Assembly (NCBI GenBank): GCA_011523055.1
Contig: WTHQ01000037.1
Span: 3,210-67,209, forward strand
Direction: 5' to 3'
Length of the DNA: 64,000 nt
Origin: Methanobacteriota archaeon
GTDB taxonomy: Archaea; Thermoplasmatota; Poseidoniia; Poseidoniales; Thalassarchaeaceae
Shown here: piece by piece, positions 3,520 through 23,127 of the stretch
Layout of the letters: each line of letters starts with the position of its first letter
Numbering within the stretch: position 1 is the stretch's first letter
Position numbers and translations under genes: made by a program
The notes under the pieces: model-generated
Seen by the model: only the letters and a program-made list of their open reading frames with translations
Database searches by the model: none
What the model was told of the DNA's origin: nothing

Positions 3520-3532
3520 CCCCTAGGACAGG

Positions 3533-6500
3533 TCATTCCTGCTTAGATTCCTCCATCGACCTGATCCGCTTCTTTAGTCGATCTCGAATCAATGGGGCCA
3601 TAAACAGGGCTGCAACAAGCACCAATGCGATAAAAGCTCCGAAAACTGCGAATGTTTCGCTCACTCTGGCGGCGACTGCTTCGCATTCCTTGTTGTTGTC
3701 GACATCGCTGGGGATGCTATTGAAGTCCAGTGGGTCCGATCTGCACCTTATCTCATCAAGGTCTGTCCACCCATCTCCATCATCATCGAGATCGATAATT
3801 AGTGTAGATGGGATGCCTTCAACCAAAAAGTCGGTGAGCCCGTCCCCGTCTGTATCCAGGTAGGCTGCGGGGTCGAGTGGGAAGGCGTCTGGACCCGCCT
3901 CACAAATGCCGTTAGTGGCTAGGCTGCCATCGCAAATCCCGTCATTGTCTGCGTCTGGATCGGCATTGTCTCCCATGCCGTCCCCGTCGACATCAGAATT
4001 CTCAGTTGGGTCTGCAGGGAATGGGTCTTCTAGGTCCGACGTACCATCGAGGTCACAATCTAGCTTGAGTGTGCAGCCCTCATGTTCGTCAACATTGAGC
4101 AGCCCGTCTCCATCTGAGTCTGTGTCCGCATTGTCACCAATTCCGTCGTTATCGAAATCACTCCAATCATTGGGGTCCTCTGGGTATTTGTCCTGGTCGT
4201 TGAAGACTCCGTCCCCATCCATGTCTGGATCCTCATCGTCGCAAATGTAGTCTCCATCGATATCGTCGGGCACGTCATTGGGATTCAGTGATGAGGAGTC
4301 GCATTTGTATTCCATGCTGTCAGAATACCCATCCCCGTCATCATCCGCATCCTCATCTCCGTAGAACGCAATCCATGTTGGATCGACCTGGTCTGCCAAC
4401 TGATCATTGTCTCTGTCCATCGGTACGTCTGGGTCGAAGGGCGCGGGATCCTCCCCCCTTGAGCAGACGTTGGGGACCTCGTTGCTACCATCGCAAAACC
4501 CGTCGCCATCCGAATCAGGGTTGAGGGGGTCGGTGCCGCGGTCCGAGGCCGAGATGTAGACCCCGGTGCCGGTCTCTACCGAGTCGTCCAACCCATCTCC
4601 GTCATCGTCTTGGTCTTCGATGAATATTACTGCGGCGTCTTCGGGCAGGTCGTCCCATAGCCCGTCGCCATCAGAATCTCTCGGTAGAGAAGGGTCAGTC
4701 GGATATGGATCTGGCCCGGCTGTACAGGCTTCTCTCTGATAGGGCCCATCACAGATTCCGTCGCCATCTGAGTCCACAACTGTTGGGTCTGTGCCTGTGG
4801 CTAACTCATCCGAATCAAGCACTCCGTCGTTGTCATCATCAGTATCTGATAGGTCCCCCACCGTATCTCCGTCAGTATCAAGCCAGTCAGACGGGTCTAG
4901 TGGGAAGTCGTCCTCGGTGTCCAGGAAGCCGTCATTGTCATCATCCTCATCAGCGACAGCGGGGCCTTCACCATCAAAGTCATCATCTGCCAACATGTCT
5001 CCATCTGTGTCAACAGGGACCTCTGGGTCCAAGGGGTCAGGATCTGGCCCATGGGAACAGGTCCCCGGCACCGAATTGACGCCGTCGCAGAATCCATCAT
5101 CATCAGTGTCTTCATCCAGAGATGACGAGCCCAAGGTTGCCTCTTGGAGATCGCTCATCCCATCGTTGTCGTCATCCAGATCGGAGGTCATTTCCGTGAA
5201 GGCGGAGATGCTCTCTGGAACCCAGTCTGGAATCCCATCCAAGTCATAGTCAGATAGAACTGCCAACTCGATTTCAATAGTCGCGATGGTTCCGCTTGAG
5301 TTGACCGCTGACACAGTGTACGTACTCAATGGGGTCACCTGTAGGGGAGTGCCAGAGATGGTGCCAGTAACTGGTGAAATCTCCAAGCCAAACGGCAGTT
5401 GTGGGCTTATAGACCATGAGACGGCCGAGTTGTTGGTTGCGTTCTTGATAACCCAGAGATCGCTGCCAGTCCCATCATTCGCGTCAAAGTAGAGGTTCCT
5501 TTCGAGGAAGACATATCCAGTATTTCGCCCTGATTCGCTTGATTGTGACCCTGCCCTAACATCGCTGATCATACTCACCGTAAAATCGGAAAGGTCGAGG
5601 GAATGAGGCTCATACCCATTTCCGTCTGTTGACGCAGTGAAGTAAACTATCCCATCGTCACTAGTTGTAAACCCACTATGTTGACCTGGATATGAGGATA
5701 TTGAGCCGGCTTTTAGGTCAGAGGTTAGCCATGCAGTGGCATTGTCTGGCGAGTATAGCCACAGCTCATTTCCCGATTGGCCGTCGTTCGCTGAGAACCC
5801 AACGACTTGCCCTAGCCTGTGGATGCCAGAGGAAGTGGATCCAGGGTTGCTACCACTGGACCCGGGCCTCAAATCTGTATGACGTTGACAGGAGTTGGAT
5901 GATGAGTCATAGGACCAGAGCTCTGCCCCATGACCCTCGTCTCTTGCCGAGAAGTATGCCTTCGTTCCGAATATCGCGATTTCACCGGAGCTGACACTCG
6001 GTTGGCCACTAGAGCTGCCGGGCCATATGTCACACAGAAGGGTGGCTCCCGATTCGAGGCTGTCTATGTCAATTCCCCAGAGTTCAGTGCCGGAATTACC
6101 GTCATTCGCGTCGAAAATTACAATGCTGCCCACCTGTTGGAAACCCAGTTGGAATCCTGGTAGACTCGGAGAATTACCCCCGTTTAGATCGCCGAGTGAC
6201 GAGAACGAGCCAGTGGTGGCATCTACAACCCACGGCTCGTATCCTGAGGTGCCGTCCTGGGCATCGAACAAGAGCCAGCGATCATTGATTGCATGCAGCC
6301 CTGAGAAGGTTCCCGGGTCAGAGCCTTGCTGGCCGGGATTAAGGTCTGCCACCATTTGAGATATCCCTGTCGCTGGATCGTGGCTCCAGAGCTCATTTCC
6401 GTTAACCCCGTCATCAGCGTTGAACCAAATCTTCCCAGCCAGTGGCACCAGACCTGTGGTGCTGCCTGGATTGCTCCCTGAAATGCCCTGTCGGATGTCC

Positions 6501-7129
6501 ACGACCATCCAGTGGCTGTTGTTGGAGGGGTCATAGGCCCAAACCTCTGGCCCTGAGGATTGATCTGTTGCGTCGAAGTAGAGTACGTGATTGAGGGGGG
6601 CTATCCCCCCGAATTTTCCAATCTGTCCGCCCTGTGATGTTGATTGGGCGATTGATGTCAATTGATTGAGTGAACCCGTTGATGGGTCATACTGTTGGAG
6701 CTGTGAGACTGGATTGTTGGCGTCGAAATACAGCATTCCATCCATCGCAACCATGCCATGATTGGGTCCGAGGATGGATGATCCTCCTTGCAGACTGTAT
6801 TCCTTCGAGGGGGCCTCGGCCTCTGGGCAAACTATCGGCGGGCTGCAATCTCCATTTGCCTCGGCTCCGAAGGCTTGGAAGGCGTCGAAGTGAAGCTGGT
6901 CTATCTCACTTCCAAAAACCATAATGCTGGGGTGGTCGAAATTTGCCTCCAACCCGGAATCGACGTGTGTATCCATTCTCTGTGGGTGGCTGGTATATTC
7001 CGCGGTTTGCCCGTGGGAGAAGAACAATGCAATGATGATCATGATCGCGCCGGATCTTGATCGGCCATGCGAGAAGGTCATCGTTTCCCCCAACCCTCCA
7101 TTATTCAAAAATTCGATCCATTGAAGCAC
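3533..7129 (-). CDS. Giant (about 1200 aa) cell-surface protein: signal peptide, ELW-repeat beta-propeller region, Ig-like (He_PIG-type) domain, long Asp-rich thrombospondin-type-3-like calcium-binding repeat region, C-terminal TM anchor with basic tail
   Basis: Single 1198-codon ORF. N-terminal hydrophobic signal (the more likely start is M17, MTFSHGRSRSGAIMIIIALFF, at 7081). At least six repeats carry G[NT]ELW..D (GNELWSHDP, GTELWGIDID, GAELWSYDS, GNELWLYSP, GSDLWVIK). He_PIG-like stretch ISPVTGTISGTPLQVTPLSTYTVSAVNSSG. About 350 aa of DxDxDG.xDxxD units (DTDGDGLTD, DADNDGICDG, DSDGDGLLNVDE). C-terminus FAVFGAFIALVLVAALFMAPLIRDRLKKRIR. The many alternative-frame ORFs in the track are codon-bias artefacts of the Asp/Ser-rich DNA. 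Confidence 0.85.
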   Translation of the reverse strand: MLQWIEFLNNGGLGETMTFSHGRSRSGAIMIIIALFFSHGQTAEYTSHPQRMDTHVDSGLEANFDHPSIMVFGSEIDQLHFDAFQAFGAEANGDCSPPIVCPEAEAPSKEYSLQGGSSILGPNHGMVAMDGMLYFDANNPVSQLQQYDPSTGSLNQLTSIAQSTSQGGQIGKFGGIAPLNHVLYFDATDQSSGPEVWAYDPSNNSHWMVVDIRQGISGSNPGSTTGLVPLAGKIWFNADDGVNGNELWSHDPATGISQMVADLNPGQQGSDPGTFSGLHAINDRWLLFDAQDGTSGYEPWVVDATTGSFSSLGDLNGGNSPSLPGFQLGFQQVGSIVIFDANDGNSGTELWGIDIDSLESGATLLCDIWPGSSSGQPSVSSGEIAIFGTKAYFSARDEGHGAELWSYDSSSNSCQRHTDLRPGSSGSNPGSTSSGIHRLGQVVGFSANDGQSGNELWLYSPDNATAWLTSDLKAGSISSYPGQHSGFTTSDDGIVYFTASTDGNGYEPHSLDLSDFTVSMISDVRAGSQSSESGRNTGYVFLERNLYFDANDGTGSDLWVIKNATNNSAVSWSISPQLPFGLEISPVTGTISGTPLQVTPLSTYTVSAVNSSGTIATIEIELAVLSDYDLDGIPDWVPESISAFTEMTSDLDDDNDGMSDLQEATLGSSSLDEDTDDDGFCDGVNSVPGTCSHGPDPDPLDPEVPVDTDGDMLADDDFDGEGPAVADEDDDNDGFLDTEDDFPLDPSDWLDTDGDTVGDLSDTDDDNDGVLDSDELATGTDPTVVDSDGDGICDGPYQREACTAGPDPYPTDPSLPRDSDGDGLWDDLPEDAAVIFIEDQDDDGDGLDDSVETGTGVYISASDRGTDPLNPDSDGDGFCDGSNEVPNVCSRGEDPAPFDPDVPMDRDNDQLADQVDPTWIAFYGDEDADDDGDGYSDSMEYKCDSSSLNPNDVPDDIDGDYICDDEDPDMDGDGVFNDQDKYPEDPNDWSDFDNDGIGDNADTDSDGDGLLNVDEHEGCTLKLDCDLDGTSDLEDPFPADPTENSDVDGDGMGDNADPDADNDGICDGSLATNGICEAGPDAFPLDPAAYLDTDGDGLTDFLVEGIPSTLIIDLDDDGDGWTDLDEIRCRSDPLDFNSIPSDVDNNKECEAVAARVSETFAVFGAFIALVLVAALFMAPLIRDRLKKRIRSMEESKQE

Positions 7130-11457: not shown

Positions 11458-11470
11458 TTGGAGTGTTGGA

Positions 11471-12019
11471 TTGATGGAAGTCAGCCCCTATCTCCTGCTT
11501 CTCATACCCTTGATTCCACTAATCCTATGGGTGGCGTTTTGGACTATTGCCTATCCAGTGATGTTTCTTTATGGTGCGATAACTTCATCCAGCAGCAAGA
11601 GGCGATGGCGAAAAGACGTCCTAAGAAGGGAAAGAGGCACTATGGAGAAGGTAGGGCGGGATACATTGTCAATGGACAAGATCAGGATTCCCTTGGGTGC
11701 TACCGAATCAGAGGTGATCTGGGCTAGCATTGTCATCGGACCAAGCCACTGGCAACAACTAATCGGCTCATTGTACAACATAATAGGAGGCTCAGTCGAC
11801 GTATACAGGGACATCATCGCAATCGGCAGGTCAGAGGTTCTCCAGAGACTGAGGGAAATCGCCGAGGAGAAGGGATTTGACAATGTCGTGGCTGTTAGGC
11901 TGGACACCAGCATGATTGGTACCTTTCGATCTCAGGGCAAGGGATCGAAGGGGATTGAGATCTTTGCCTATGGAACTGGCGTGAAAACTGAGGTTCCAAG
12001 CTCGTTTATTGTACAATAG
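11471..12019 (+). CDS. Membrane-anchored YbjQ/UPF0145 paralog (N-terminal TM helix plus DUF74 domain)
   Basis: N-terminus LLLLIPLIPLILWVAFWTIAYPVMFLYGAI is a TM helix. The C-terminal half repeats YbjQ hallmarks (IIGGSVDVY, GFDNVVAVRLDTS, FAYGTGVK). Starts 13 nt after the first paralog. Confidence 0.7.
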   Translation: MMEVSPYLLLLIPLIPLILWVAFWTIAYPVMFLYGAITSSSSKRRWRKDVLRRERGTMEKVGRDTLSMDKIRIPLGATESEVIWASIVIGPSHWQQLIGSLYNIIGGSVDVYRDIIAIGRSEVLQRLREIAEEKGFDNVVAVRLDTSMIGTFRSQGKGSKGIEIFAYGTGVKTEVPSSFIVQ

Positions 12020-12085: not shown

Positions 12086-13111
12086 ATGGATACAGGGCCA
12101 GTGACAAAAATTGAGCCAGAGATCGCTGCTAGACTTGCAAAGCAGCGCTATCATCTGGTTGGGGATCATGGTGGTGTGAAGGTGTGCCATTGGACCAAGC
12201 AATCACTGATTGCAGATAGGTCCTGTTACAAGGGTACCTTCTATGGCATCGAGAGTCATGGTTGCATGCAGATGGCGCCCAATGTGGATACCTGCAACCT
12301 AGGTTGCACATACTGCTGGAGAGAGCCCCACTCTGACACACTGAACAAGATAGATGACGACCCCTACGACCTTTACCTTCAAAGCGTCAAAGCACACAGA
12401 AGGTTGTTAACGGGTTATGGGGGAAATCCCAAGGCAGACAGGGAAAAGTGGCTGGAAGCGCAGAATCCGAAGCACGTTGCGATCTCCTTGAACGGAGAGC
12501 CGACCTTGTACTCAAGGCTAGGCGAGTTTCTGGATATTTGTCATCAGCATGGCACTAGCACCTTCTTAGTGACAAATGGCAGCCTCCCGAAGGTCATTGA
12601 AAATCTAGATCCGCTTCCGACCCAGCTGTACGTAAGTGTTGATGCTCCCAACAAGGATGTTTTTGACAGGCTCTGCAAGCCGAAGTTTGACCAAGCTGCA
12701 TTCCACAAACTGGAGGAGACTCTGGAAATTCTTCCGTCATTAGATACGAGGACTGTTTGCAGACATACCCTCATCAAAGGTGAGTCCCTAGGTTATCATC
12801 GTGAATATGCCAGATTGGACAATCTAGCAGATCCTGACTTCATCGAGGCCAAGGGGTATGTCTTCGTTGGGAACAGTAGGAACAACCTCAGTATCGAAAA
12901 CATGCCCAGCCATGAAGATGTGATGAGGTTCTCCGAGGACCTAGCTCCACTCGTGGGGAGGAAAGTCCTCTCCGAACGAAGGGAAAGTAGGGTGGCTCTG
13001 ATCGGAAGAGAGATGATGCCGGTCGAACTGCCTGAGAAAACCCGTGATCTGCCGACTGATCTCGGCATAGCCAAGCCCCAGAGGTTCAATCTTCCAGTGA
13101 CGCTCGATTAG
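12086..13111 (+). CDS. taw1: tRNA 4-demethylwyosine synthase Taw1/TYW1 (radical SAM)
   Basis: N-terminal pattern QRYHLVGDHGGVKVCHW..CYKGTFYGIESHGCMQMAPNVDTCNLGCTYCWR is the Taw1 signature, with the CxxxCxxC radical-SAM cluster and an upstream second Cys cluster. 341 aa. Confidence 0.8.
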   Translation: MDTGPVTKIEPEIAARLAKQRYHLVGDHGGVKVCHWTKQSLIADRSCYKGTFYGIESHGCMQMAPNVDTCNLGCTYCWREPHSDTLNKIDDDPYDLYLQSVKAHRRLLTGYGGNPKADREKWLEAQNPKHVAISLNGEPTLYSRLGEFLDICHQHGTSTFLVTNGSLPKVIENLDPLPTQLYVSVDAPNKDVFDRLCKPKFDQAAFHKLEETLEILPSLDTRTVCRHTLIKGESLGYHREYARLDNLADPDFIEAKGYVFVGNSRNNLSIENMPSHEDVMRFSEDLAPLVGRKVLSERRESRVALIGREMMPVELPEKTRDLPTDLGIAKPQRFNLPVTLD

Positions 13112-14118
13112 GGTTCAGAGTTGATTACCATGGGCCTTGATGAGCCACAAGATGGGCACTCTTGCGAATTATCATCATAGATGTGCTTGCAGGCTGGGCA
13201 CACGCCTGCGAGCACGAGGGACCCCCTCTCCCCGTAATCCTCAAGTTCCCCTCTGTCCGATCTGGTAAGGTTCAGTATCTGCTCCTCGTCATCAACTTCC
13301 ATCTCAAATTTTCCAGGTCCACCTAGCTGAGTTAGGACCTCAGGGGGGAGAGTCATGGTTCCTGTCTCGTCAATTATTAGTTCTCGGGTGCTACTCAGGT
13401 CGGAGATGTCGACATCATTCCCATGTTGCGCAATGAACCTCCCCTCCCTCAACTCAAGTGATCGGTCCGCAAATGATGCTACCTCCCTGCTGTGGGTAAC
13501 AAGGAGGAATGCTACCTCTTCCTCCTGGTGTAACTTGGCGAACAAAGACAGTACCTCGCGGCTTGTTATGGGGTCCAGGGCCCCAGTCGGCTCGTCTGCG
13601 AGTATGAGCTTCGGATTCGTTATCAGTGCCCTTGCTATGGCGACCCTCTGTTGTTCTCCGCCGGATAGTTGAGCAGGCATTCCCCTGGACCTGCCGGCCA
13701 TGCCAAGCCTTTCCAAGAGAGCTTCGGCCTTCTTCCTGGCGTTGGCGGCACTGGTTCCCTGGTGCCTCAATGGCTGGGCTACATTGTCCAGGGCGTTCAT
13801 GTCCGGGAGTAAGTTGGCGTCTTGAAAGATGAATGATACAGTATCCTGACGCAGTTCAACGAGCTCGGCGCCTGTTAGCCTGTTTATCTGCCTACCCTGA
13901 AATGCCACGTTTCCAGCGCTGGGCTTCATTAGGCCACCAAGGCACTTGAGCAACGTGGATTTCCCCGACCCTGATGGGCCAACGACCGCAACGGCCTCGC
14001 CTGGCCGGACTTTCACATGCAGCCCTCGCAGCGCCACAACGTTCCCATCCAATGCGGATGATTCGTATACGTGGTACAACCCCTCTGCTTCGAGAATAAG
14101 ATTCTGGTTCATTTTCAC
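13108..14118 (-). CDS. ABC transporter ATP-binding protein (MacB/LolD-like) with a C-terminal about 100 aa extension ending in a CxxC...CxxC zinc ribbon
   Basis: Walker A GPSGSGKST. ABC signature LSGGEQQRVAIARAL. Walker B LILADEPTGALD. C-terminus CPACKHIYDDNSQECPSCGS. Start ATGA overlaps the permease stop. Confidence 0.9.
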   Translation of the reverse strand: MKMNQNLILEAEGLYHVYESSALDGNVVALRGLHVKVRPGEAVAVVGPSGSGKSTLLKCLGGLMKPSAGNVAFQGRQINRLTGAELVELRQDTVSFIFQDANLLPDMNALDNVAQPLRHQGTSAANARKKAEALLERLGMAGRSRGMPAQLSGGEQQRVAIARALITNPKLILADEPTGALDPITSREVLSLFAKLHQEEEVAFLLVTHSREVASFADRSLELREGRFIAQHGNDVDISDLSSTRELIIDETGTMTLPPEVLTQLGGPGKFEMEVDDEEQILNLTRSDRGELEDYGERGSLVLAGVCPACKHIYDDNSQECPSCGSSRPMVINSEP

Positions 14119-17100
14119 TCACCCTTCAACACTACTGCAAGATCCGAATTTAAAGCACGCCTGGTGACGAGTAGCAGCGCCGCAATCACGCTTACCAAGA
14201 CGATGGCATTCACGACAGCCAGCTCCATCCATGGCCAGACCAATGTCCGATCGACGACAGCCTGGGACCCCAGGAAGATCTGGAAGAGGAAGCCGAAGAT
14301 AGCGAAGAAACCATTGAACGACTGGGCGATTCCGAGGCCCAACAGAATCCCCAGACCCATGCTCATTCCGACGATGGCTAGAATCTCGAAGAGGACCAAC
14401 CTGATTATCTGCGAGGGGCTCGCGCCGATGGCCTGGAGAATTGCTAGCTCTTTCTTTCTCTGGGTCAACACGAGGGAAAGAAATACGAATGCAGAAGCTA
14501 CGGACGCCATCGAGGCTACTACGAACTGGAGGCTGAGTAGGCCTTGGGTGCCGAAGATCAGGCCACCATTCCTCTCGACGTCGGAGTGTGCGGTGTTCCA
14601 ATCCAGTGCGAGGCTCACACCCTCTACGTTCAGGAGCTCAGCACTCAGCCTTTCTAAGCCTAGTTTACAATCGTCGTCGGTTTGATCGCACACCTCAAAG
14701 AACCATCTTGGAGACGTGTATGCGTCCACGGTCGAATTGCCCGCGAGCTCCCTGTATGTCGACTCCCCGATCAATACAGCTTGGGTGGACTCAGATCCGG
14801 TCATCCCCGGGATCCACTCGTGCCTGCCTTCGTAGTCGAGGTTCGTCGAGGTGTACGTCGTGGATATCTCAAAGCCCGTCTCTGTGATGATCGGAGTGAA
14901 GGTTGGTAGGAAAATTTCTACAGTGCCATCCTCGATGTTGAAGAAGTCTGCAGCATTCTCGCCGATAGTGACCTTGGATGTCTGGAAATCTCTGATTGGA
15001 GAGGCTTGGTTATCCCAGATTAGCGTGTCTTCATGGCCCTTGAACAGGACCAGAGCAGGCACGAGCCCCCCGCCTTCTTGGGCCGTGACGAATGTCGACC
15101 CCACAGATGTCATCGAGCGTATCGCATCTACTGCGCTGTTGTCCAGCGAGGTCATGGCCGAATTTACCCTCTGTCGCGCGACATCCTCCGAGACAGGGGC
15201 CTCGAATTGGACCTGCAAATCGGCCCCGACCTGCGCTGAGGCTGTTCTCTCATCGACCAGGGTGCCTGTGTACCCTTGGACAGCGGCCAGCGTTACGATT
15301 GAGAGTGTCAAAAGCAGGATGACTGCCAGTCTGTTGACTGATTCGTTGGATCCGGATGACCTCAATCCTCTCCTGATGTCCGACATGGCTGGTGTCCACC
15401 CGACGATTTTCAGAACTATGCGCGGAGCAGCGCCTCCTATTCTACCCAAAACCAAAGCCCCACCGATCCACAGGGCAAAGGGCCCGAATAATGCAAGAAG
15501 TGAGTCCACGAAGAATCCAGAAATTATCCCTGAGGCGCCCCATGGCCCCCAACCTCCAGCAGTTTCTATGTAGCTTTCAATCGCCGCGAGGAGCCCTACT
15601 CCGAATGCGAGGAGTTGGAGCCATGTCCTTGGCTTCCTCGAGGTTCTGACCTTCCTTACGCCTTCGTCGATTTCCATTTCTAGGAAATCCTTCGTTCTAC
15701 CTCTTGCGACTAGGTATGCAATTCCGACGGTAAGGAAGAAGACGGATATGGTGTATCCAAGGCCCAAGGTTGGATCTACGTCCAGATCCCCTTTCTCAAA
15801 TGACATGAATCCAACTGCATCAAGAATCAGTGGGACTGAAAGTAGTGCTGCGACGTATCCAAGTATCCAACCTGCTATGGAGATAGCAGCTAGTTCCCTT
15901 AGCACCATGCCTCGCAAGCCTCGCTCCGTTCCGCCTATCACTCTGTGAATGGAAATCTCGCGCTTCCTCTGCTCGAGTGATAATATCAGACCATAAATGA
16001 GTACTGCGAACGATAGTATTACGATTGGAATCATGAGTATGTAGTCGAAGACTTGCACTAGGCCAAGGAATATCCTCAGAAAGACGATGGTGCCGGAAAT
16101 CAGGTCATTGTACTCGATTTTAATCTCGTTGTCTGGACCATAGCCCTCTGCCTCCAACGACTTCCTGTTTGCGTCAAGCCAATCGGCTGCGTCGTCTGTT
16201 GATGAAGTGGGAAGGAGGTTCCTGTCAATGGCGATTCCCAAGTATGCATGGTCGTTGACCACGAGGGTCGTTTTGTTTGATTCAGACAGGGCTGAATCCC
16301 CAACAATGACGGGATTGAACAGAAGGGTAGGGTTAGTGAAAGGCCACTCCTCGTAAACTGCTACGATTGTCAGGTCCCTCAGAGTCATAGTCACCGTGCA
16401 AAATTGGTAAACTCCAGCATCGAGGTCCCTCGTGATAATTTGCCCATCACACTCCTTGATTTCGCTACCAATTACCTGTGCGTCTGTGACATAGGTGAAG
16501 TTCAGTGAGTCTATGGTATCATTGACCCTTACCCCCGCCTGACTTGCAATCTTGCTGGGGAGTATTACCGGATTGATACCAGGCTGGTCGCTACTTGGCC
16601 AGGATCCGTAGACAACGCGTTTGGAATATCTCTCTGCCAGTTCGCCATCGTAGTGCGATGGGTCGACGATCCTCATGATTCTGTCACCATTGATGGACGG
16701 ACCGTTTTCCAGTGCCTCAGGATAGTCCCAAGAAACATTGTCCCAGTTTCCGGTCGGTCCGGAGACCTCAACCACATTGAGCGGTTGTGGTAGGGCAAAA
16801 CCCTCGTCGAAGAACCCCGAGAGTCGAAGGCCTTGTCTTCCGTAGACAAGCCCGCAATCGATTATCTCGGCACGGTCAAGGAGTTCATCACATACTGATC
16901 CCCATGTGACTGAGTCGTTCGTCCGAGTCGTCCAGTCTGTTTGGCTCGAGAAATCGACCTTCGCATCGTAGACCTCATCATTCAGAGAGTCTTGGAGCGC
17001 CCCTTGCGACAACCCAACGCCATATGCGAACACTGTGGTTATGACGAGCGAGGCAAGGAATACTCCAGCGAATATCGCCAGCCCCCTCTCCCTTCCCAAC

Positions 17101-17183
17101 CAAGCGCTCCTTACGGCGGAAGTGAAGTTAGGAGGTATGTCTGAAATCTGATCAGTTAGAGACCTCTTGCCTTTTGATTTCAT
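14115..17183 (-). CDS. Large ABC permease with two FtsX/MacB-type four-helix modules and two large extracytoplasmic domains (1022 aa)
   Basis: N-terminal TM helix, an about 330 aa external domain, FtsX-like TM bundle 1 (residues about 380-500), a second about 250 aa external domain, and a C-terminal FtsX-like bundle (LAILQAIGASPSQIIRLVLFE...). Overlaps both ATPase genes by 4 nt. Confidence 0.85.
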   Translation of the reverse strand: MKSKGKRSLTDQISDIPPNFTSAVRSAWLGRERGLAIFAGVFLASLVITTVFAYGVGLSQGALQDSLNDEVYDAKVDFSSQTDWTTRTNDSVTWGSVCDELLDRAEIIDCGLVYGRQGLRLSGFFDEGFALPQPLNVVEVSGPTGNWDNVSWDYPEALENGPSINGDRIMRIVDPSHYDGELAERYSKRVVYGSWPSSDQPGINPVILPSKIASQAGVRVNDTIDSLNFTYVTDAQVIGSEIKECDGQIITRDLDAGVYQFCTVTMTLRDLTIVAVYEEWPFTNPTLLFNPVIVGDSALSESNKTTLVVNDHAYLGIAIDRNLLPTSSTDDAADWLDANRKSLEAEGYGPDNEIKIEYNDLISGTIVFLRIFLGLVQVFDYILMIPIVILSFAVLIYGLILSLEQRKREISIHRVIGGTERGLRGMVLRELAAISIAGWILGYVAALLSVPLILDAVGFMSFEKGDLDVDPTLGLGYTISVFFLTVGIAYLVARGRTKDFLEMEIDEGVRKVRTSRKPRTWLQLLAFGVGLLAAIESYIETAGGWGPWGASGIISGFFVDSLLALFGPFALWIGGALVLGRIGGAAPRIVLKIVGWTPAMSDIRRGLRSSGSNESVNRLAVILLLTLSIVTLAAVQGYTGTLVDERTASAQVGADLQVQFEAPVSEDVARQRVNSAMTSLDNSAVDAIRSMTSVGSTFVTAQEGGGLVPALVLFKGHEDTLIWDNQASPIRDFQTSKVTIGENAADFFNIEDGTVEIFLPTFTPIITETGFEISTTYTSTNLDYEGRHEWIPGMTGSESTQAVLIGESTYRELAGNSTVDAYTSPRWFFEVCDQTDDDCKLGLERLSAELLNVEGVSLALDWNTAHSDVERNGGLIFGTQGLLSLQFVVASMASVASAFVFLSLVLTQRKKELAILQAIGASPSQIIRLVLFEILAIVGMSMGLGILLGLGIAQSFNGFFAIFGFLFQIFLGSQAVVDRTLVWPWMELAVVNAIVLVSVIAALLLVTRRALNSDLAVVLKGE

Positions 17184-17911
17184 TCCGCATCCCCCGTAGT
17201 TTCTCCCCAGGCTGATCGAATATCCGAAGCTGCAGTCTTTCCGTCCCTCATCAAGAGCATTCGGTCAGCCTTCGATGCCAAAATTGGATCATGAGTAACC
17301 ATCAGTACGGAAATTGGATCGTTTGGATCTGCGCAGAGTTCCTTGAATAGCGAGATTATTGATTCACCCGCCTTGACGTCGAGATTGCCAGTTGGCTCAT
17401 CTGCCAGCAGGAGTGGCCTTGATCCAGCAATGGCTCTGGCGACTGCGACCCTTTGCTGCTGGCCGCCCGATAGCTCATTGGGCATGAAATTCATCCTATC
17501 GGCAAGTTCGACTCTCTCCATTGCGGACTTGGCTCTTGTTTCTGCCTCCCGTGCTTCGACTCCTGCCAGTTCGAGGGATAGAATCACATTCTCTACGGAT
17601 GAAATGTGATTCAATAGGTGGAAATCCTGGAATATCCATCCGACTCCTTTTCTCCTGACGTCAATCACTTGGTTAGGGGCCTTTGTCCCATACGCCATAG
17701 GTGGCTTTGATTCAATTTTTATGGATCCTTGGTCCGCTCTCAATAGGCCTCCAATGATGTTGAGCAGCGTTGATTTCCCACAACCTGAGGGGCCCATTAG
17801 TGCGACAAGTTCCCCTTTCCTTAACGAAAGATCCACTCCCTTTAGGACCTCGAGCCTGTTTGACCCGGAACCAAAGCCCTTCTTCAGACCAGATACCTCA
17901 AGCATAGACAA
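17180..17911 (-). CDS. ABC transporter ATP-binding protein (MacB/LolD-like), the second ATPase of the operon
   Basis: GPSGCGKSTLL Walker A. LSGGQQQRVAVARAI signature. LLLADEPTGNLD Walker B. 243 aa. Confidence 0.9.
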   Translation of the reverse strand: MSMLEVSGLKKGFGSGSNRLEVLKGVDLSLRKGELVALMGPSGCGKSTLLNIIGGLLRADQGSIKIESKPPMAYGTKAPNQVIDVRRKGVGWIFQDFHLLNHISSVENVILSLELAGVEAREAETRAKSAMERVELADRMNFMPNELSGGQQQRVAVARAIAGSRPLLLADEPTGNLDVKAGESIISLFKELCADPNDPISVLMVTHDPILASKADRMLLMRDGKTAASDIRSAWGETTGDAE

Positions 17912-18043
17912 CCGGTCATTCCATTATCTTATCATGTTTCGTTTGGGGGGGGTGTTCATTCCCATTTGTGACGCTGAAGGTGAGTACGAAACTAGAGATT
18001 CTTGAAGTCCTGACCCCTCCTCCGCATACTCGGAGAGGGTTGA

Positions 18044-19174
18044 TTGAAAGTCCTACTGGTTCATGTTTGGTTTTGGCCTCATATAGGGGGTGGTGACCGA
18101 CACGTGGAGTTGTTGGGCAGGGAGTTAGTTTCGAAAGGACATGAAGTGACGGTGTGGTGCGCGGATGTCCCTGAACATCCTGAAAAGTCATTCAGCAGGT
18201 TTGGGATTAACGTCGTTAGGATCCCACCCAGTTTCATTATTTCCGGAGTGGACCCAGTAGTCAGCCTGAGAGGCCTCGACCCCGGGGAGTTCGATGTTAT
18301 CCACCTCCACGACACATTGCCCGTTTTGATTAGGAAGGTGGTGAAGAAGGCCACTAAATTGGGAGTTCCTATTGTGACCACTTATCACAACGATTACGTC
18401 AAAGCTACCTATGCTGGGAGGGCCCTCAAATGGATTAGGTGGAGGCTGCAGGGAAAAAACACACTTGATCTATCAACAACGACGATTGCTCTCAGGCCCT
18501 ACTTCAAGCAATTACTTAGGGAAAAGGGGGCTAATGGACGGATTGAGGTCGTTCCCACGGGGTTTGAGCCACCTGTTGAGGTTGAGGTATCCCCAAGAGG
18601 AGTACCGAATGGCCCTTTCGTGTTGTATCTTTCTAGGCTTACAAAGCAGAAGGGCCTGGACATCCTTCTAGAAGCTTGGACCCTAATGGATGATACTAGG
18701 AAGTTGGGGCATCAACTTGTGATTGCGGGGGATGGGCCTCTTAGGACAGAGGTTCTGAAAACCATACAATCAGGCACCACAGACCTACACTACGTTGGCC
18801 TGGTGGAAGATGAGGAGAAATCATGGCTCCTCAGGAACGCCTCCGCGCTTGTTCTGCCATCGAGGTTTGAGGGGTTGCCCGCCGTACTACTGGAAGCCGC
18901 ATGGGAAGGGTTGCCAGTGGCGATGTCAGATGTGAATGGACTTGGTAAGTTCACTGCGAATGGGGGCTTTGGACTCTCCATGCAGCCGAACGATGTCAAG
19001 TCGTGCATTGATGCTATATCCCAACTTACCGGTGCGGACGAATCAACGAGGGAATCTTGGTCTGACGCTGGTAGAGCACTCGCGAGAGACTATCTATGGC
19101 CCAACGTCGCAAACGAGATATTGGGGGTATACGAGAACGCGATTAAGCAAAAATTTCATTCTGGGGTAAGGTGA
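18044..19174 (+). CDS. Glycosyltransferase family 4 (GT-B fold)
   Basis: N-terminal MKVLLVHVWFWPHIGGGDRHV (GT4 N-domain). C-terminal EGLPAVLLEAAWEGLPVAMSDVNG (the E-x7-E-type motif). Confidence 0.85.
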   Translation: MKVLLVHVWFWPHIGGGDRHVELLGRELVSKGHEVTVWCADVPEHPEKSFSRFGINVVRIPPSFIISGVDPVVSLRGLDPGEFDVIHLHDTLPVLIRKVVKKATKLGVPIVTTYHNDYVKATYAGRALKWIRWRLQGKNTLDLSTTTIALRPYFKQLLREKGANGRIEVVPTGFEPPVEVEVSPRGVPNGPFVLYLSRLTKQKGLDILLEAWTLMDDTRKLGHQLVIAGDGPLRTEVLKTIQSGTTDLHYVGLVEDEEKSWLLRNASALVLPSRFEGLPAVLLEAAWEGLPVAMSDVNGLGKFTANGGFGLSMQPNDVKSCIDAISQLTGADESTRESWSDAGRALARDYLWPNVANEILGVYENAIKQKFHSGVR

Positions 19175-19218: not shown

Positions 19219-20490
19219 ATGCAGGCTCGCCTGAAGGTCGGGTCTGATAGCAAGCCCAGGCTACTCGTGGCAAAGGGCTGTTTTGATCCGATGGGAGGTG
19301 CCGAGAGAGACATAATCAGGGTGATTCCTTCCTTGATGGAGCGCTTTGAAGTGTCCGTTGCGACACTAAGGCCATCAAAGGAGGTTCAGAGCCTATGCTC
19401 CGACCTGGGATTGAGGCTTCTTTCCCCAGCTGAGCCGTGGGCATTGCCCACAGGGATCATCAACGAAGTTCTTCATAACAAACAAAGAAGATCCTTCCAA
19501 GCTTGGGCGTCCGTTCAGGGGATAATGGAAGAAATATCCTCCGTAGACGGTATCCACTTGGTGAGCGGGGATGGCTCAATTGGAATTCTGCAATTGGTTG
19601 ATCCGGGCACCAGAGTACATGTGCATTACCTCGAGCCGGACAGGGGCTTGCATGAGGTGGTTTTGCACCTAGACGTACAGGGGAGGCCCAAAAGACCGTT
19701 ATTCGTTACTCGCCTTGCATTGTCATTCGCAAGGTTCTCGGATCGTCGCCTGGTTAGAAAGTACATCAATAGGGATAATGTCAGGGTTTCAGCAAACTCA
19801 TCTTACAGCTCTTCCATGTTCAGGTCAGTCTACGGATTCGAAGCTGGTATAATCAGGCCTACGGTGTCTTCATCGGAGTTCACGGAAAGACAGACTGATG
19901 AGGAAGAGGGTGCATGGAAGGACGTAGAGGATCTGCCAGAGCCCCCTTGGGTTGTCACAGTAGGTGGATTCAATTGGGTAAAGGGCATCTGGGAGTGTAT
20001 CTCAATGCTAGAGGGTTCTGGTGTCGGGCTGGTCGTCATAGGCAGGGGGTCTGACGAAGACCTACACTCCCTCAGGGAGCATGCAAAGGCCTCGGATGTA
20101 GATATGTGGGTATACAGTGACTTAGACCTGAGTCAACTCATTGCAACGATGAGGAGATCCAGGGCAGTAATTTCCATGGCTCATGGAGAGCCATTTGGCC
20201 TCACAGCCATAGAGGCTTTGTCAGTGGGGGTCCCGGCCCTATTCGTCGATGATGGAGGGTTCAGAGACTCGATCATCGATGGAATCTGTGGGCGCCTACT
20301 TCCCCGAGATGATTACGCCGCATGGCACAGAGCGATTGAGGTAGCGGGAGATCCGGAAGTTATCGACAAGTGGGAAACTACTGGGAGAAACAGGATAAGG
20401 GAACTTAGTCTAGACCCAAAATCCCAGTCAGATTTCATCTATGATGCCCTTTTCCCAGACCACTCTCCGATCGAAATTGAGGAAGAGTGA
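19219..20490 (+). CDS. Glycosyltransferase family 4 (second of two, GT-B fold)
   Basis: GEPFGLTAIEALSVGVPALFVDDGGFRDSI C-terminal nucleotide-sugar binding motif. 423 aa. Immediately follows the first GT. Confidence 0.8.
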   Translation: MQARLKVGSDSKPRLLVAKGCFDPMGGAERDIIRVIPSLMERFEVSVATLRPSKEVQSLCSDLGLRLLSPAEPWALPTGIINEVLHNKQRRSFQAWASVQGIMEEISSVDGIHLVSGDGSIGILQLVDPGTRVHVHYLEPDRGLHEVVLHLDVQGRPKRPLFVTRLALSFARFSDRRLVRKYINRDNVRVSANSSYSSSMFRSVYGFEAGIIRPTVSSSEFTERQTDEEEGAWKDVEDLPEPPWVVTVGGFNWVKGIWECISMLEGSGVGLVVIGRGSDEDLHSLREHAKASDVDMWVYSDLDLSQLIATMRRSRAVISMAHGEPFGLTAIEALSVGVPALFVDDGGFRDSIIDGICGRLLPRDDYAAWHRAIEVAGDPEVIDKWETTGRNRIRELSLDPKSQSDFIYDALFPDHSPIEIEEE

Positions 20491-20971: not shown

Positions 20972-21066
20972 GACACCCGGGGTGGAGGGAGTAGTGTAAG
21001 ACTTATCCAGATTGAAGCAAACAGAAACTCCGACTATTTCATGAGCCGAATGCAGGACCGGATGGC

Positions 21067-23127
21067 ATGGAGCCGATAAGGCGCGTTGCGATAGTTGGGG
21101 CTGGAAATATGGGATCTGGGATCGCCCAGAAATCCGCACAAGAAGGTTTCTCGGTGCAAATGATCGATAGAGAAGAGGGCTACGTCGAGCGAGGAATTAA
21201 TACAATCAAGGAATTCCTGCAAGAGGCCATACAGAGGAGGATTTTCTCTGAAAGCCAAGTTGAGGCGATCATGGCAAACATCACTGGAGTAGTAGGTGCG
21301 GATTCCATACATTTAGACACGGACCTGGTGATTGAAGCTGTATTCGAGGATATTGAAGTGAAATCTAGTGTACTGAATGTTCTCTCATCCTCCTGCGACG
21401 AAAAGACGATCATTGCGACTAACACCTCTTCCTTGTCGGTTCAAGAGTTGTCATCTCTGTCAGACCGTCCCGACCGATTTATTGGGTTGCATTTCTTCTA
21501 CCATCCCGCGAAAAACAGACTTGTCGAAATAATTCCTTCGTCTTCGACATCGGAAGAGACCATTCAGTCAGTCACCCAATATTGCCGGGCAATGGGCAAG
21601 GTTGTCATCCTCTGCAAAGATAGGCCTGGTTTTGTCGTTAATCGTTTCTTCGTTCCATGGCTCAATGAGGCATGCAGATTACTTGACGAGGGGCTTGGGA
21701 CACCTGCCCAGATCGACTCCACGGCCAGGGAATGTTTCGGTATTGGGATGGGTCCCTTCGAATTGATGAATCTAACAGGGCCCTCGATCGCTCTTCACTC
21801 GTCCGATTACCTCTCCTCGCAGCTGGAGACGGATCGGTTTAGAGGTGCAGACTGCTTAAGGAAACTCGTCGAGGATGGAGGTCAATGGGACCTCTCGGAA
21901 GCAAGTGATACGACCACCTCTGAGTGTTATGAGAAGATCAAGAATCGGTTGCTCGGCGTTATCTTCTGTGTATCCTCCCAAATCGTTGAGGAGGAGATTT
22001 GTAGCTTGGAAGATGTGGATAGGGGTGCTAAAGTGGGTTTGAGATGGCCAATCGGCCCATTTGAAATAGCAAACAGGATGGGAGTTGGAACCGCGTCTAG
22101 AATTGCTTCTGAATATGCAACCACAGCGGGATTGGAAGTCCCTCGAATTCTATCAGATAGAGGGTCCAAGCCGTTCGATTTCAACCTGATAGACATAGAG
22201 GTCGAAAACGGCGTGGCGGACATAACGTTCAATCGGCCAGAGGCGATGAATGCTCTGAATGAGCAAGTGGTTTCTCAGCTTCGAGACATCTGGGATGGAC
22301 TAGAAGCGGACCAAAACGTCCACTCTGCCATCTTCAGGGGAGCAGGTAAAGCATTTGTCGCAGGTGCTGACATCAAGTTCTTTGTCGACAAGATTGAGGG
22401 TGGCAGGATTGATCAGATCAGGGACTTTACCGAGATGGGGCACGCCATACTGAATAGGATCGAGTCATCGAGGATCAACACGATTGCGGTAGTCTCTGGG
22501 CTTGCATTGGGAGGAGGCCTAGAACTGGCCATGTGCTGCAAACATAGAATCGGCGTTAGGGGGAAGACAATGCTAAGATTCCCTGAAACTGGAATCGGGA
22601 TCTACCCTGGGCTTGGGGGCACACAAAGATCCGTTATGATTGCAGGGGTCGAATGCGCCAGATACAGCATAATCGGAGGGAACTGGATGGATTCGACCCT
22701 ATCACACTCCATCGGATACCTCACAAATATCGTGGAATTTGGAGAATTGGAAGAAGAAATAGAAAAGATCGTGAAGGGGGAGGTTGGAGCCCCTGGATAC
22801 TGTTATGAGCCAAGAGACCCAGATAATCCGCTTGTGAGCCAGATCCTGGAAACCTATGGAGAAGGGTGGCATGACGACCTAGTGGTATCGCCTTCATCTA
22901 CTGGCCCATTCCAGGAAAGACAAGTGAAGTTAATTTCGAGGAACGCGCCCATTTCGATAGAGATGGCCTCTGAACTGATCGAAATCGCCAGTAATTCCCG
23001 CGACGAACCGACAGTAGGATTGAAATCAGAATTGGATGGCTTGGAGAGAATTTTCTCCACCAAAGATGCCCTGATCGGACTCAAGGGTGTCCTAAATGGT
23101 GATAGGGTTCGATTCTTTGGCGAATGA
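21067..23127 (+). CDS. Fused 3-hydroxyacyl-CoA dehydrogenase (N-terminal) / enoyl-CoA hydratase (crotonase, C-terminal) beta-oxidation enzyme
   Basis: N-terminal Rossmann VAIVGAGNMGSGIA and 3HCDH middle region. C-terminal crotonase-fold motifs (AFVAGADIKFF, ALGGGLELAMCC). 686 aa. Confidence 0.9.
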   Translation: MEPIRRVAIVGAGNMGSGIAQKSAQEGFSVQMIDREEGYVERGINTIKEFLQEAIQRRIFSESQVEAIMANITGVVGADSIHLDTDLVIEAVFEDIEVKSSVLNVLSSSCDEKTIIATNTSSLSVQELSSLSDRPDRFIGLHFFYHPAKNRLVEIIPSSSTSEETIQSVTQYCRAMGKVVILCKDRPGFVVNRFFVPWLNEACRLLDEGLGTPAQIDSTARECFGIGMGPFELMNLTGPSIALHSSDYLSSQLETDRFRGADCLRKLVEDGGQWDLSEASDTTTSECYEKIKNRLLGVIFCVSSQIVEEEICSLEDVDRGAKVGLRWPIGPFEIANRMGVGTASRIASEYATTAGLEVPRILSDRGSKPFDFNLIDIEVENGVADITFNRPEAMNALNEQVVSQLRDIWDGLEADQNVHSAIFRGAGKAFVAGADIKFFVDKIEGGRIDQIRDFTEMGHAILNRIESSRINTIAVVSGLALGGGLELAMCCKHRIGVRGKTMLRFPETGIGIYPGLGGTQRSVMIAGVECARYSIIGGNWMDSTLSHSIGYLTNIVEFGELEEEIEKIVKGEVGAPGYCYEPRDPDNPLVSQILETYGEGWHDDLVVSPSSTGPFQERQVKLISRNAPISIEMASELIEIASNSRDEPTVGLKSELDGLERIFSTKDALIGLKGVLNGDRVRFFGE

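Follow-up and report, generated by a model that had tools for sequence, protein, structure and literature searches.

The window, i.e. the whole stretch of 64,000 nucleotides analysed, belongs to a Marine Group II (Poseidoniales) archaeon and carries on its minus strand three ABC transporter genes: the ATPase (NBD) gene A1 (17180..17911, ORF of 243 aa from a TTG start), the fused tandem-FtsX permease gene P (14115..17183, ORF of 1022 aa) and A2 (13108..14118, ORF of 336 aa), which encodes an ATPase with a C-terminal tail. The original prediction of two ATPases around a 1022-aa tandem-FtsX permease is confirmed by the ORF map and by Pfam, with ABC_tran in A1 (E 1.2e-35) and in the NBD of A2 (residues 1-232, 13423..14118, minus strand; E 4.9e-36) and two FtsX stretches in P (E 8.8e-20). 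A divergent intergenic region (17912..18043) separates A1 from two plus-strand genes, GT4a (18044..19174) and GT4b (19219..20490). Pfam identifies both as GT4/GT1 glycosyltransferases, as had been read from the sequence.

An overlap of 4 nt had also been proposed on each side of P. It exists between A1 and P, which have ATGA in common. For P and A2 to have GTGA in common, A2 would have to start at its GTG; a 99%-identical database homologue of A2 is 334 aa long, which suggests a start two codons later, at ATG 14112, with a 2-nt spacer here in place of an overlap. Since homologue alignments of A1 start at residue 3, ATG 17905 (giving 241 aa) is a more likely start for A1 than the TTG. The junctions of A1-P-A2 are close-packed or overlapping in three clades, and the three genes are kept together in all 24 loci spanning both flanks (12 genome and 12 metagenome loci), these comparisons being all drawn from one archaeal order, the Poseidoniales, whose genomes are generally syntenic. 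The transporter appears to occupy a conserved core locus present in single copy and does not look like part of an accessory island. The system belongs to the Type VII ABC systems of the MacB/FtsX superfamily and is specific to one lineage, Marine Group II / Poseidoniales.

According to its hydropathy profile P has 10 TM helices with the N-terminus inside, and the AlphaFold model, of moderate confidence (pLDDT 68), contains 10 long helices. The order is TM1, ECD1, TM2-4, TM5-6 linker, TM7, ECD2, TM8-10. The predicted two FtsX units with two large outside domains are thus recovered by Pfam, hydropathy and model together. The first extracytoplasmic domain, ECD1 (residues ~57-358; 16110..17015, minus strand), has an alpha/beta fold in the model and four invariant cysteines (98, 110, 245 and 262); its Foldseek matches are the periplasmic domains of LolE, LolC and MacB. 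It is among the two most variable regions of P, with 43-55% identity vs 57-88% in the TM blocks. The second, ECD2 (residues ~653-878; 14550..15227, minus strand), delimited like ECD1 by hydropathy and model, takes in a sister clade (locus L023) a 185-aa pentapeptide-repeat insertion (Pfam Pentapeptide match).

The best Foldseek match of P is E. coli YbbP (9ge6/9ge7, E 1e-14, ~1040 columns), followed by BceB and then by LolC/E and MacB. The Type VII system YbbAP(-TesA) (PDB 9GE6-9GE8), which aligns with P over its full length, is composed of 2 YbbA for 1 YbbP and has two periplasmic domains besides its 10 TM helices (PMC12646458). P shows this YbbP-type architecture, i.e. a single polypeptide in which two linker helices join two FtsX units, each bearing a large extracytoplasmic domain, and in both systems the NBDs are separate proteins of the MacB/LolD family. 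Sequence orthology between YbbP and P is nevertheless not detectable beyond the FtsX helices (hhalign probability 12%, ~13% identity). BceAB/PsdAB of Firmicutes, the second-best fold match, also have an ATPase apart from a fused FtsX-type permease of 10 TM helices, but only one large outside domain is present in BceB. As fused 10-TM tandem-FtsX permeases were already established in this way, the internal duplication of P, first taken for a departure from the usual arrangement, is not the novelty of the system.

Could an assembly or sequencing error have fused two neighbouring FtsX genes into P, or could the A2 tail be a read-through? The probability of such artefacts is negligible, and nothing was found in their favour. 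The 1022-aa ORF is full-length in 12/13 independent MGII assemblies (59-92% identity), the 13th contig ending within the gene, and full-length homologues of 1022-1205 aa form more than 100 protein clusters. This rules out a mis-joining, as does the conserved TM5-6 linker in an unbroken ORF: P is a single conserved gene. Read-through is ruled out by the conservation of the tail in 120 full-length homologues.

Each FtsX unit contains a putative coupling helix, assigned from invariant columns, the model and the analogy with MacB (PMC5985334). That of unit 1 (LEQRKREISIHRVIGGT; 15927..15977, minus strand; invariant columns E404-G418) lies between TM2 and TM3 in the model and deviates from the usual FtsX pattern, yet is largely invariant across the family. 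That of unit 2 (LTQRKKELAILQAIGAS; 14418..14468, minus strand; invariant columns Q908-A921) is of the canonical FtsX type. The two segments are thus unlike each other while each is largely invariant.

The best NCBIfam models are DevA, MacB, LolD and FtsE for A1 and LolD, FtsE and MacB for A2, every score being below the family cut-off; the PDB matches of the A2 NBD (pI 8.1) are LolD, MJ0796 and YbbA. Walker A, Q-loop, LSGGxQQR signature, Walker B-Glu and H-loop, read from the translations, are canonical in both proteins, which are by these motifs catalytically intact. After its NBD, A1 has an invariant motif, TA(A/S)SDIRSAWG, followed by a short acidic end (10 loci, three clades). A1 and A2 are 38% identical, below the 40-45% that either displays with E. 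coli YbbA and unrelated bacterial ATPases; judged by these values, the two NBDs are deeply diverged. The asymmetric heterodimer of the original prediction fits this divergence and the co-conservation of A1 and A2 in 24/24 loci. Two deeply diverged NBD genes for one fused permease are unusual: YbbAP and BceAB have one, and the BceAB ATPase is a homodimer. LolCDE shows the converse arrangement, one ATPase gene serving two permease genes, and there the asymmetry between the permease halves is functional.

The tail of A2 had been described as a zinc ribbon, and CPACKHIYDDNSQECPSCGS is indeed present. Its cysteines 307, 310, 321 and 324 (module 2, residues 307-324; 13147..13200, minus strand) are spaced as CPAC-x10-CPSC-G and form a Cys4 metal knuckle with a pLDDT of 95 in AlphaFold. 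The conservation of the CxxC pairs, proposed as a check, is complete in 23/23 tails (27-75% identity), and the four cysteines are at least 99% conserved among full-length homologues (n=120). Pfam DZR, Zn_Ribbon_1 and Zn_ribbon_3 score below cut-off (E 1e-3 to 8e-3), and in the PDB the sequence comes closest to the rubredoxin-like domain of rubrerythrin (E 1e-4), which has the same CPxC...CPxCG spacing. The site thus resembles a rubredoxin-type site as much as a zinc ribbon.

There is also more to the tail than this knuckle, which is preceded by a module with the alignment motif R-E-L-I-I-D-x-x-G-T-x-T-L-P-P-[DE]-x-L-x-x-x-G-G-P-G-[RK]-F (module 1, residues ~243-288; 13255..13392, minus strand). 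AlphaFold predicts a beta-beta-alpha-beta-beta half-barrel, and Foldseek retrieves AbrB (1yfb, prob 0.97, rmsd 2.3 A over 51 columns), then SpoVT, Sso7c4-like 5itm, MazE and C68, all with weak E-values (at least 0.09). Pfam MazE_antitoxin remains below threshold (E 0.05-0.23), and hhalign sets tail and AbrB in a common register with a probability of only 6%. In that register the tail has the topology and the G-x-[VLI]-x-[LI]-P-x-[DE]-[LIV] motif of AbrB/SpoVT/MazE. Module 1 is probably an AbrB/MazE-like hairpin, an assignment whose statistical support is weak. We found no report in the literature of an AbrB-like module fused to an ABC ATPase. Among 1.84 billion proteins the tail occurs in only 38 representative clusters, all but one belonging to this transporter family; the exception is a chance low-complexity match. 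From this phyletic distribution, the determination of which had been suggested, the tail is specific to the Marine Group II / Poseidoniales clade. What is unusual in A1-P-A2 is the two ATPase genes and this clade-specific tail, the permease type being already known from YbbP.

The tail had further been thought to bind nucleic acids possibly, and on this basis A2 could moonlight as a transcriptional autoregulator, membrane-sequestered or released according to the state of the transporter. AbrB, SpoVT, MazE and Sso7c4 do bind DNA, zinc ribbons often bind nucleic acids, and an arginine equivalent to AbrB R8 is invariant in the tail. But the tail is strongly acidic in 23/23 homologues (pI 4.1-5.2, 13-25 D+E vs 7-13 K+R), when AbrB-type domains are basic. 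Of the DNA-contact residues of AbrB, which we take to be R8, R15, R23 and R24, three of four are absent, Thr, Leu/Val and Thr/Leu/Lys standing at R15, R23 and R24 in the hhalign register. Both features make nucleic-acid binding unlikely and, with only one half-domain per heterodimeric complex, we consider the autoregulator very improbable.

A lone AbrB half-domain normally requires a partner strand set to complete its barrel. This bears on a possibility that dispenses with the heterodimer: homodimers of A1 and of A2 would take turns on P, e.g. by condition, and the A2 tails would pair under the NBD dimer into an AbrB-type swapped-hairpin barrel, like the paired C-terminal regulatory domain of MalK/MetN. 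In the solved structures matched by Foldseek, domains of the AbrB/MazE type occur as obligate dimers, no second AbrB-like copy was found as partner within the window, and YbbP and BceB run on homodimeric ATPases despite an asymmetric permease. We nevertheless hold this alternation to be quite unlikely, because both ATPase genes are kept and translationally coupled to P in 24/24 loci, the coupling helices of P have diverged mutually while each is conserved, and A1 has its own invariant C-terminal motif. Moreover, flanking genes within one operon are the usual sign of a 1:1:1 complex.

We thus retain the heterodimer. P would be powered by one A1 and one A2, anciently diverged, and each of its two non-equivalent halves would offer its coupling helix as the docking site for one NBD. 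With both sites intact, the binding and hydrolysis of ATP would move the long stalk helices and outside domains by mechanotransmission as in MacB, and the substrate would be acted on in or on the outer leaflet and not pumped through the bilayer. This principle and hydrophobic outer-leaflet substrates are probably common to YbbAP and A1-P-A2. The tail may have a cytoplasmic role in regulation or in the docking of a partner, possibly with sensitivity to metal or redox state, but not in DNA binding. The NBD is also extended cytoplasmically in MalK/ModC (TOBE), MetN (NIL), OpuA (CBS), Wzt (C-terminal domain) and OppD (Fe-S region), and as in these ATPases the extension likely modulates activity or binds a partner or substrate. 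It differs from the TOBE/NIL/CBS/Wzt extensions by its AbrB/MazE-like hairpin and Cys4 knuckle: TOBE, NIL, CBS, Wzt_C and oligo_HPY give no Pfam match in the A2 tail, so it is, as first stated, not a standard ABC accessory domain. Carried by only one of two NBD subunits, i.e. once per complex, it could not form the symmetric tail dimer of MalK/MetN-type systems nor work like their paired regulatory domains.

The neighbouring genes suggest a substrate. GT4a (Pfam Glyco_transf_4 and Glycos_transf_1) has a weak full-length likeness to the archaeal glycosylation protein Agl16 (NCBIfam 72.6 bits vs a 575-bit cut-off), and GT4b a recognisable GT1-type C-terminal half. GT4b is the most persistent neighbour of the transporter, adjoining or within ~2 kb in five arrangements across clades. 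Loci L016-L031 do not retain the Taw1/IMPDH synteny of the window, yet every contig among them that extends upstream of A1 shows the arrangement GT4b<->GT4c-A1-P-A2; L013 has a third GT4 gene, which is co-directional with A1 and overlaps its start by 4 nt. A co-directional GT4 gene thus lies immediately upstream of A1 in two clades, and GT4b is still near the transporter in L032 and L096 despite further rearrangement. The association with glycosyltransferases, at first only hinted at, comes out strengthened, since it outlasts rearrangement; lipoprotein export, proposed along with surface glycoconjugates, has nothing specifically in its favour. Gene linkage alone names no substrate and GT4 enzymes are very common, but the recurrent GT4 linkage, with an HAE3/MMPL RND gene downstream of the transporter in one clade (L023), suggests a membrane-anchored glycoconjugate or glycolipid. 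This would be made by the neighbouring GT4 enzymes and extracted, presented or released at the cell surface by the transporter.

A generic MacB/BceAB-like resistance or efflux pump (antimicrobial peptides, toxins, hydrophobic xenobiotics) would make the glycosyltransferase neighbours coincidental. Database names such as "ABC-type antimicrobial peptide transport system permease" and "lipoprotein export ATPase" go in this direction, BceB and MacB are among the nearest characterised folds, and the outside domains, which evolve fastest and accept pentapeptide-repeat insertions, could reflect an arms race. We judge it unlikely all the same. The BceRS-type two-component system that partners BceAB has no adjoining counterpart at the locus, and no membrane-fusion adaptor gene adjoins it either; the GT4 linkage survives five arrangements, including the co-directional gene upstream of A1 in two clades; and the locus seems a conserved core. 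A heterodimer-powered Type VII mechanotransducer for a surface glycoconjugate or glycolipid is the function that, together with the role of the tail, we infer with moderate confidence.

Several differences separate A1-P-A2 from the known systems. YbbAP has one ATPase gene, YbbA is devoid of a tail, and the archaeal host of A1-P-A2 has a single membrane, unlike E. coli, and no TesA-like hydrolase gene adjacent to the locus. LolCDE and DevBCA/MacAB are related through their NBD models, LolD, DevA, MacB and FtsE, on which A1 and A2 score best (below family cut-offs), and the LolC/E and MacB periplasmic folds match the outside domains of P, but neither an adaptor nor an outer-membrane partner accompanies A1-P-A2. 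DevBCA, a presumed glycolipid exporter, offers a possible functional analogy.

A TATA-like GATAAGATAAT is found ~16-27 nt upstream of ATG 17905 on the minus strand, a position that would suit a leaderless archaeal transcript of A1.

The transporter is encoded by three consecutive genes on the minus strand, identified in the ORF listing: A1, an ABC ATPase of 243 aa (17180..17911), P, a permease of 1022 aa (14115..17183), and A2, an ABC ATPase of 336 aa including a C-terminal tail (13108..14118). Pfam assigns ABC_tran to both ATPases (E about 1e-35), and canonical Walker A, Q-loop, signature, Walker B-Glu and H-loop motifs can be read from both translations. The three-gene set of the original prediction, two ATPases around one permease, is thus confirmed. 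A 4-nt overlap had also been announced on each side of P: that of the A1/P junction (ATGA) holds, while that of the P/A2 junction (GTGA) is conditional on a GTG start for A2. Because a nearly identical database homologue of A2 measures 334 aa, a start at the ATG two codons further on, leaving a 2-nt spacer to P, seems at least as likely. A1 probably starts at the ATG at 17905, since alignments with its homologues begin at residue 3. Whichever starts are used, the three genes are tightly coupled.

P retrieves 13 Marine Group II (MGII; Poseidoniales, Thermoplasmatota) genome assemblies at 59–92% identity. Its ORF is uninterrupted in 12 of them, the contig of the remaining one stopping within the gene, and full-length homologues (1022–1205 aa) form more than 100 clusters in the protein database. 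These results exclude that P is two genes mis-joined by a sequencing error; it is a single-gene permease, as first described. Homologues of A2 (328–371 aa) are abundant and the tail is present in all of them. Scanning the operon for sigma-70 promoters and terminators gave counts equal to the shuffle expectation, and such signals do not apply to archaea anyway. Rfam and tRNA scans gave no matches in the region, and no second copy of the transporter was found within the window.

In P, Pfam detects FtsX (PF02687) over two stretches, with a whole-protein E of 8.8e-20 and 71.4 bits for a cut-off of 25.5 bits. Hydropathy and an AlphaFold model (pLDDT 68) place the positively charged N-terminus inside the cell, followed by TM1 and its long stalk, an outside domain of about 300 aa, TM2-4, linker helices TM5-6, TM7, a second outside domain of about 225 aa and TM8-10. 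Each FtsX unit therefore has its large extracytoplasmic domain between its first and second TM helices, with long stalk helices, and the model helices 33–69 and 361–416, then 614–652 and 879–919, bracket the alpha/beta domains. The anatomy first proposed, an internally duplicated permease with two FtsX units and two big outside domains, is borne out by Pfam, hydropathy and the model. The best Foldseek match of P in the PDB is E. coli YbbP (9ge6_A and 9ge7_A, E 1e-14), aligned full-length over about 1040 columns, followed by BceB, then LolC/E, MacB, YtrF and HrtB. For the outside domains, the same model matches 5udf, the N-domain of LolE (E about 4e-5), and 3ftj, the MacB periplasmic region (E 5e-3); these domains may be of the Porter/Sabre type known from MacB and LolC/E.

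For YbbAP the published topology (PMC12646458) is 10 TM helices with two periplasmic domains, at a ratio of two YbbA to one YbbP, and fused permeases with either a single outside domain (BceB) or two (YbbP) figure in a review as known permutations. The internal duplication of P is thus an already known architecture: like P, YbbP has two FtsX units, two linker TM helices and two large outside domains per chain. The resemblance is architectural. We rejected P as a YbbP orthologue, sequence orthology being undetectable (hhalign probability 12%, the alignment covering 75 columns of a single FtsX unit) with only weak FtsX-level profile similarity. The setting differs too, as the TesA-type periplasmic lipid hydrolase that lies beside YbbAP in E. 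coli is missing at this locus, which is bordered by Taw1, YbjQ-like and GT4 genes; an SGNH or thioesterase match was obtained for none of these neighbours. A BceAB-type system was also rejected: BceAB has a single outside domain (TM7-TM8) and adjacent BceRS, whereas P has two, and no kinase or regulator genes were found adjacent to the transporter. LolCDE is excluded by NCBIfam scores of 216.6 bits for LolD (cut-off 307.75) and 17.6 bits for lolCE (cut-off 362). A1-P-A2 belongs to the Type VII ABC transporters (MacB/FtsX superfamily) and probably works like YbbAP, LolCDE or MacB.

The family of P appears narrow: of 862 matches, the best 120 look MGII or Thermoplasmatota. Within it the outside domains are the fastest-evolving regions (38–55% identity vs 57–88% in the TM blocks) and tolerate insertions. 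The P gene of L023, a locus of a sister clade (L023:4357-8004), has a pentapeptide-repeat insert of about 185 aa in the second outside domain, at residues about 830–930; a gene of this type is MG2_0480 in the first MGII genome (PMC9723583 supplement). Many MGIIb-type homologues carry a DUF805 (PF05656) membrane domain fused to the N-terminus of P (L013:5599-9111, P0167, P0173 and other clusters) and measure 1155–1205 aa.

Concerning the ATPases, the order is A1, P, A2 in all 24 loci where both flanks are covered, i.e. 12 genome loci and 12 metagenome loci, the latter forming a more distant clade. A1 and A2 are 38% identical to each other, and the identity of each with E. coli YbbA and with MacB-type ATPases of unrelated bacterial origin is 40–45%. 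Being closer to YbbA than to each other, they would be ancient specialised partners rather than products of a recent duplication. The best NCBIfam families for both are DevA, MacB, LolD and FtsE (181–217 bits, all under the equivalog cut-offs) and the PDB matches of the ATPase unit (NBD) are LolD, MJ0796 and YbbA; the NBDs fall in the MacB/LolD/FtsE subgroup. Past its NBD core, A1 has a C-terminal motif of its own, TA(A/S)SDIRSAWG (17183-17260), which is invariant across all three clades and is followed by a variable acidic end. Contact with A2 or with its tail might be made through this motif. The two FtsX units of P also differ in their putative coupling helices, EQRKREISIHRVIGGT vs TQRKKELAILQAIGAS, each of which is largely invariant in the family.

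YbbAP has one ATPase gene and an NBD homodimer (2:1), in contrast to the two different ATPase genes of all 24 A1-P-A2 loci. Homodimers are conceivable here too: those of A1 and of A2 would alternate on P, and the A2 tails would dimerise. We hold this to be quite unlikely. The co-occurrence in 24 of 24 loci, the ancient divergence, the unlike coupling helices and the motif specific to A1 lead us to favour one A1 and one A2 per P. Tandem FtsX permeases of 834–858 aa in L033 and L042-L044, unrelated loci fetched by chance and hence anecdotal, have a single ATPase. Type VII systems as described in reviews use a single kind of NBD, and our literature check, which was non-systematic, found no report of one with two different NBD genes.

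The tail of A2 (residues about 233–336) is conserved family-wide and comprises two parts. In its AlphaFold model (pLDDT 77, reaching 95 in the Cys4 part) a beta-beta-alpha-beta-beta unit is succeeded by two zinc knuckles. Among the best PDB matches of the first module by Foldseek is the AbrB N-domain (1yfb, 25% identity and an rmsd of 2.3 A over 51 columns, with a weak E-value); eleven of those listed, which dominate the top, are AbrB, SpoVT, Sso7c4-like, MazE or C68, with TM(target) of 0.6–0.7 and every E at least 0.09. All of these are swapped-hairpin domains, a type that homodimerises to complete its barrel, and weak E-values are expected for about 50 residues. PF04014 (MazE_antitoxin) remains sub-threshold in the tail (E 0.05–0.23, 12–14 bits vs a 24.7-bit cut-off), and an hhalign comparison with the AbrB N-domain agrees in register at a probability of 6%, so the assignment leans mainly on the model and the fold matches. 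With moderate confidence, the first module would be AbrB/MazE-like.

The second part contains the Cys motif CPACKHIYDDNSQECPSCGS, two CxxC pairs on two knuckles. In an alignment of 23 tails of 27–75% identity the four Cys are invariant, as are R19, G27, P32 and G43 of the motif RELIIDxxGTxTLPP[DE]xLxxxGGPG[RK]F, which lies upstream of the Cys. The CxxC pairs are therefore conserved in homologues, as the first reading required. Its designation of the tail as a zinc ribbon stands in part: the Cys4 knuckle is there, but Pfam zinc-ribbon scores are sub-threshold, in the PDB the knuckle comes closest in sequence to the rubredoxin-like domain of rubrerythrin (E 1e-4), and an AbrB-like module precedes it. 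The metal might be zinc or iron. No TOBE, NIL, CBS, Wzt_C or oligo_HPY domain was found after the NBD by Pfam, even at E up to 10, and an NCBIfam scan for ABC tails likewise gave none, in agreement with a non-standard accessory domain.

A nucleic-acid-binding role had been suggested for this tail. Its pI is acidic in every homologue (4.1–5.2) and, among the DNA-contact residues of AbrB, which we take to be R8, R15, R23 and R24, the equivalent of R8 alone is kept. The AbrB-like fold notwithstanding, this acidity and the loss of three of the four contact Arg make DNA binding unlikely, and we give it hardly any credence. HMMER, run exhaustively over 1.84 billion representatives, found the tail in only 38 clusters, and the 88 matches of a profile search added nothing from outside the A2 family; neither search returned a free-standing tail gene or another protein context. 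The sampled matches are A2-family members or fragments, many from frameshifted gene calls, apart from P0143, a chance low-complexity match. An HMM of the AbrB-like part, run against the six frames of the window, found A2 itself and no second AbrB-like copy. Judging from this distribution, the tail, confined to the A2 family, appears to be a clade-specific invention. We found no description in the literature of AbrB-tailed ABC ATPases or of the A1-P-A2 system; MGII papers mention homologues under generic annotations only. The novelty lies in the putative NBD heterodimer and in the tail, in a hitherto undescribed archaeal setting.

The two genes beside the transporter, GT4a (18044..19174) and GT4b (19219..20490), both on the opposite strand, are indeed GT4 glycosyltransferases according to Pfam, and GT4a weakly resembles Agl16, an archaeal glycosylation protein, over its full length. 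In the clade of the window the order FadB, membrane protein, GT4b, GT4a, transporter, Taw1, two YbjQ-like genes and IMPDH is conserved; as the whole region is syntenic there, GT4 adjacency proves little. Loci further removed from the window tell more. In L013, a third GT4 gene lies upstream of A1, co-directional and overlapping its start by 4 nt. In the clade L016-L031, the arrangement is GT4b<->GT4c-A1-P-A2 (GT4c being the co-directional GT4 gene) wherever the contig extends upstream of A1, and the Taw1/IMPDH context is gone. In L032 and L096, GT4b is now downstream, still within about 2 kb. Since the GT4 linkage recurs through rearrangement, it supports a functional tie of the transporter to a glycosylated, probably lipid-anchored, product. 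The surface-glycoconjugate link proposed at the outset is strengthened to that extent, although linkage names no product. The system could also be a generic peptide or toxin resistance pump, BceB and MacB figuring among the fold matches of P; with the GT4 genes on the other side of the balance, we consider such a pump unlikely. In L023, the one locus of its clade examined downstream of A2, an HAE3/MMPL-type RND gene directly follows A2 and is co-directional (L023:9077-11962); there is none within the window.

A model can be proposed on the following basis: P is a Type VII permease resembling YbbP, the two NBD genes are distinct and both intact, A2 has a conserved AbrB-like/Cys4 tail, and the GT4 linkage persists. 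An A1:A2 heterodimer would dock onto the two non-equivalent halves of P, and ATP-driven mechanotransmission would shift the stalks and outside domains, by which a glycoconjugate or glycolipid would be extracted, presented or released from the outer leaflet. As for the tail, single and acidic, it would act as a regulatory or partner-docking module, perhaps metal- or redox-sensitive, forming no symmetric dimer and binding no DNA. In its full form, this would make A1-P-A2 the first Type VII machine with an obligate NBD heterodimer and the tail a new ABC accessory domain linking a cytoplasmic signal or partner (metal/redox state, GT4 enzymes) to mechanotransmission, thereby gating glycolipid or glycoconjugate extraction or display in MGII; we advance it tentatively, as possible rather than probable.

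Type VII systems (MacB, LolCDE, FtsEX, BceAB, YbbAP) have been studied almost wholly in bacteria. If the model is true, two specialised NBDs would render the ATP sites and the halves of P separately mutable, helping to dissect the coordination of mechanotransmission, and the AbrB-like/Cys4 tail would be an additional type of accessory domain for ABC ATPases. This would be an elaboration of a known machine and no new principle. MGII are uncultivated, no other planktonic archaea are as abundant in the surface ocean, and next to nothing is known of their envelope biology; as a core locus tied to glycosyltransferases, A1-P-A2 offers a concrete entry to their cell-surface chemistry. An FtsX-like permease, not established as P, is among the highly transcribed MGIIa genes (PMC9723583).

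Other features were noted around the transporter. The Taw1/TYW1-like radical-SAM gene lies on the plus strand at 12086..13111 and converges on A2, which is on the minus strand; their 3' ends share 4 nt (13108-13111), a stop-codon overlap of the kind typical of very compact genomes. A1 in L032 (L032:3513-4152) and A2 in L096 (L096:3126-4134) are split on metagenome contigs by apparent frameshifts, probably assembly errors and less likely gene decay. Between GT4b and the FadB-like beta-oxidation fusion protein (686 aa, 21067..23127), a 213-aa multi-pass membrane protein (20498-21139) has no NCBIfam match and keeps its position in the window's clade at 43–58% identity. A tandem YbjQ_1 pair (11122-12019; putative heavy-metal-binding) is present in all MGII loci examined, its second gene (11471..12019) having an N-terminal hydrophobic extension. 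At 7230-8315, beside IMPDH, this archaeon has a gene of the fatty-acid desaturase family. In the region 2311-7129, on the minus strand, a 1198-aa protein whose sole match is He_PIG (Ig-like; 3533..7129) is followed by a WD40 beta-propeller protein of 402 aa (2311..3519); this pair may be large surface or secreted proteins.
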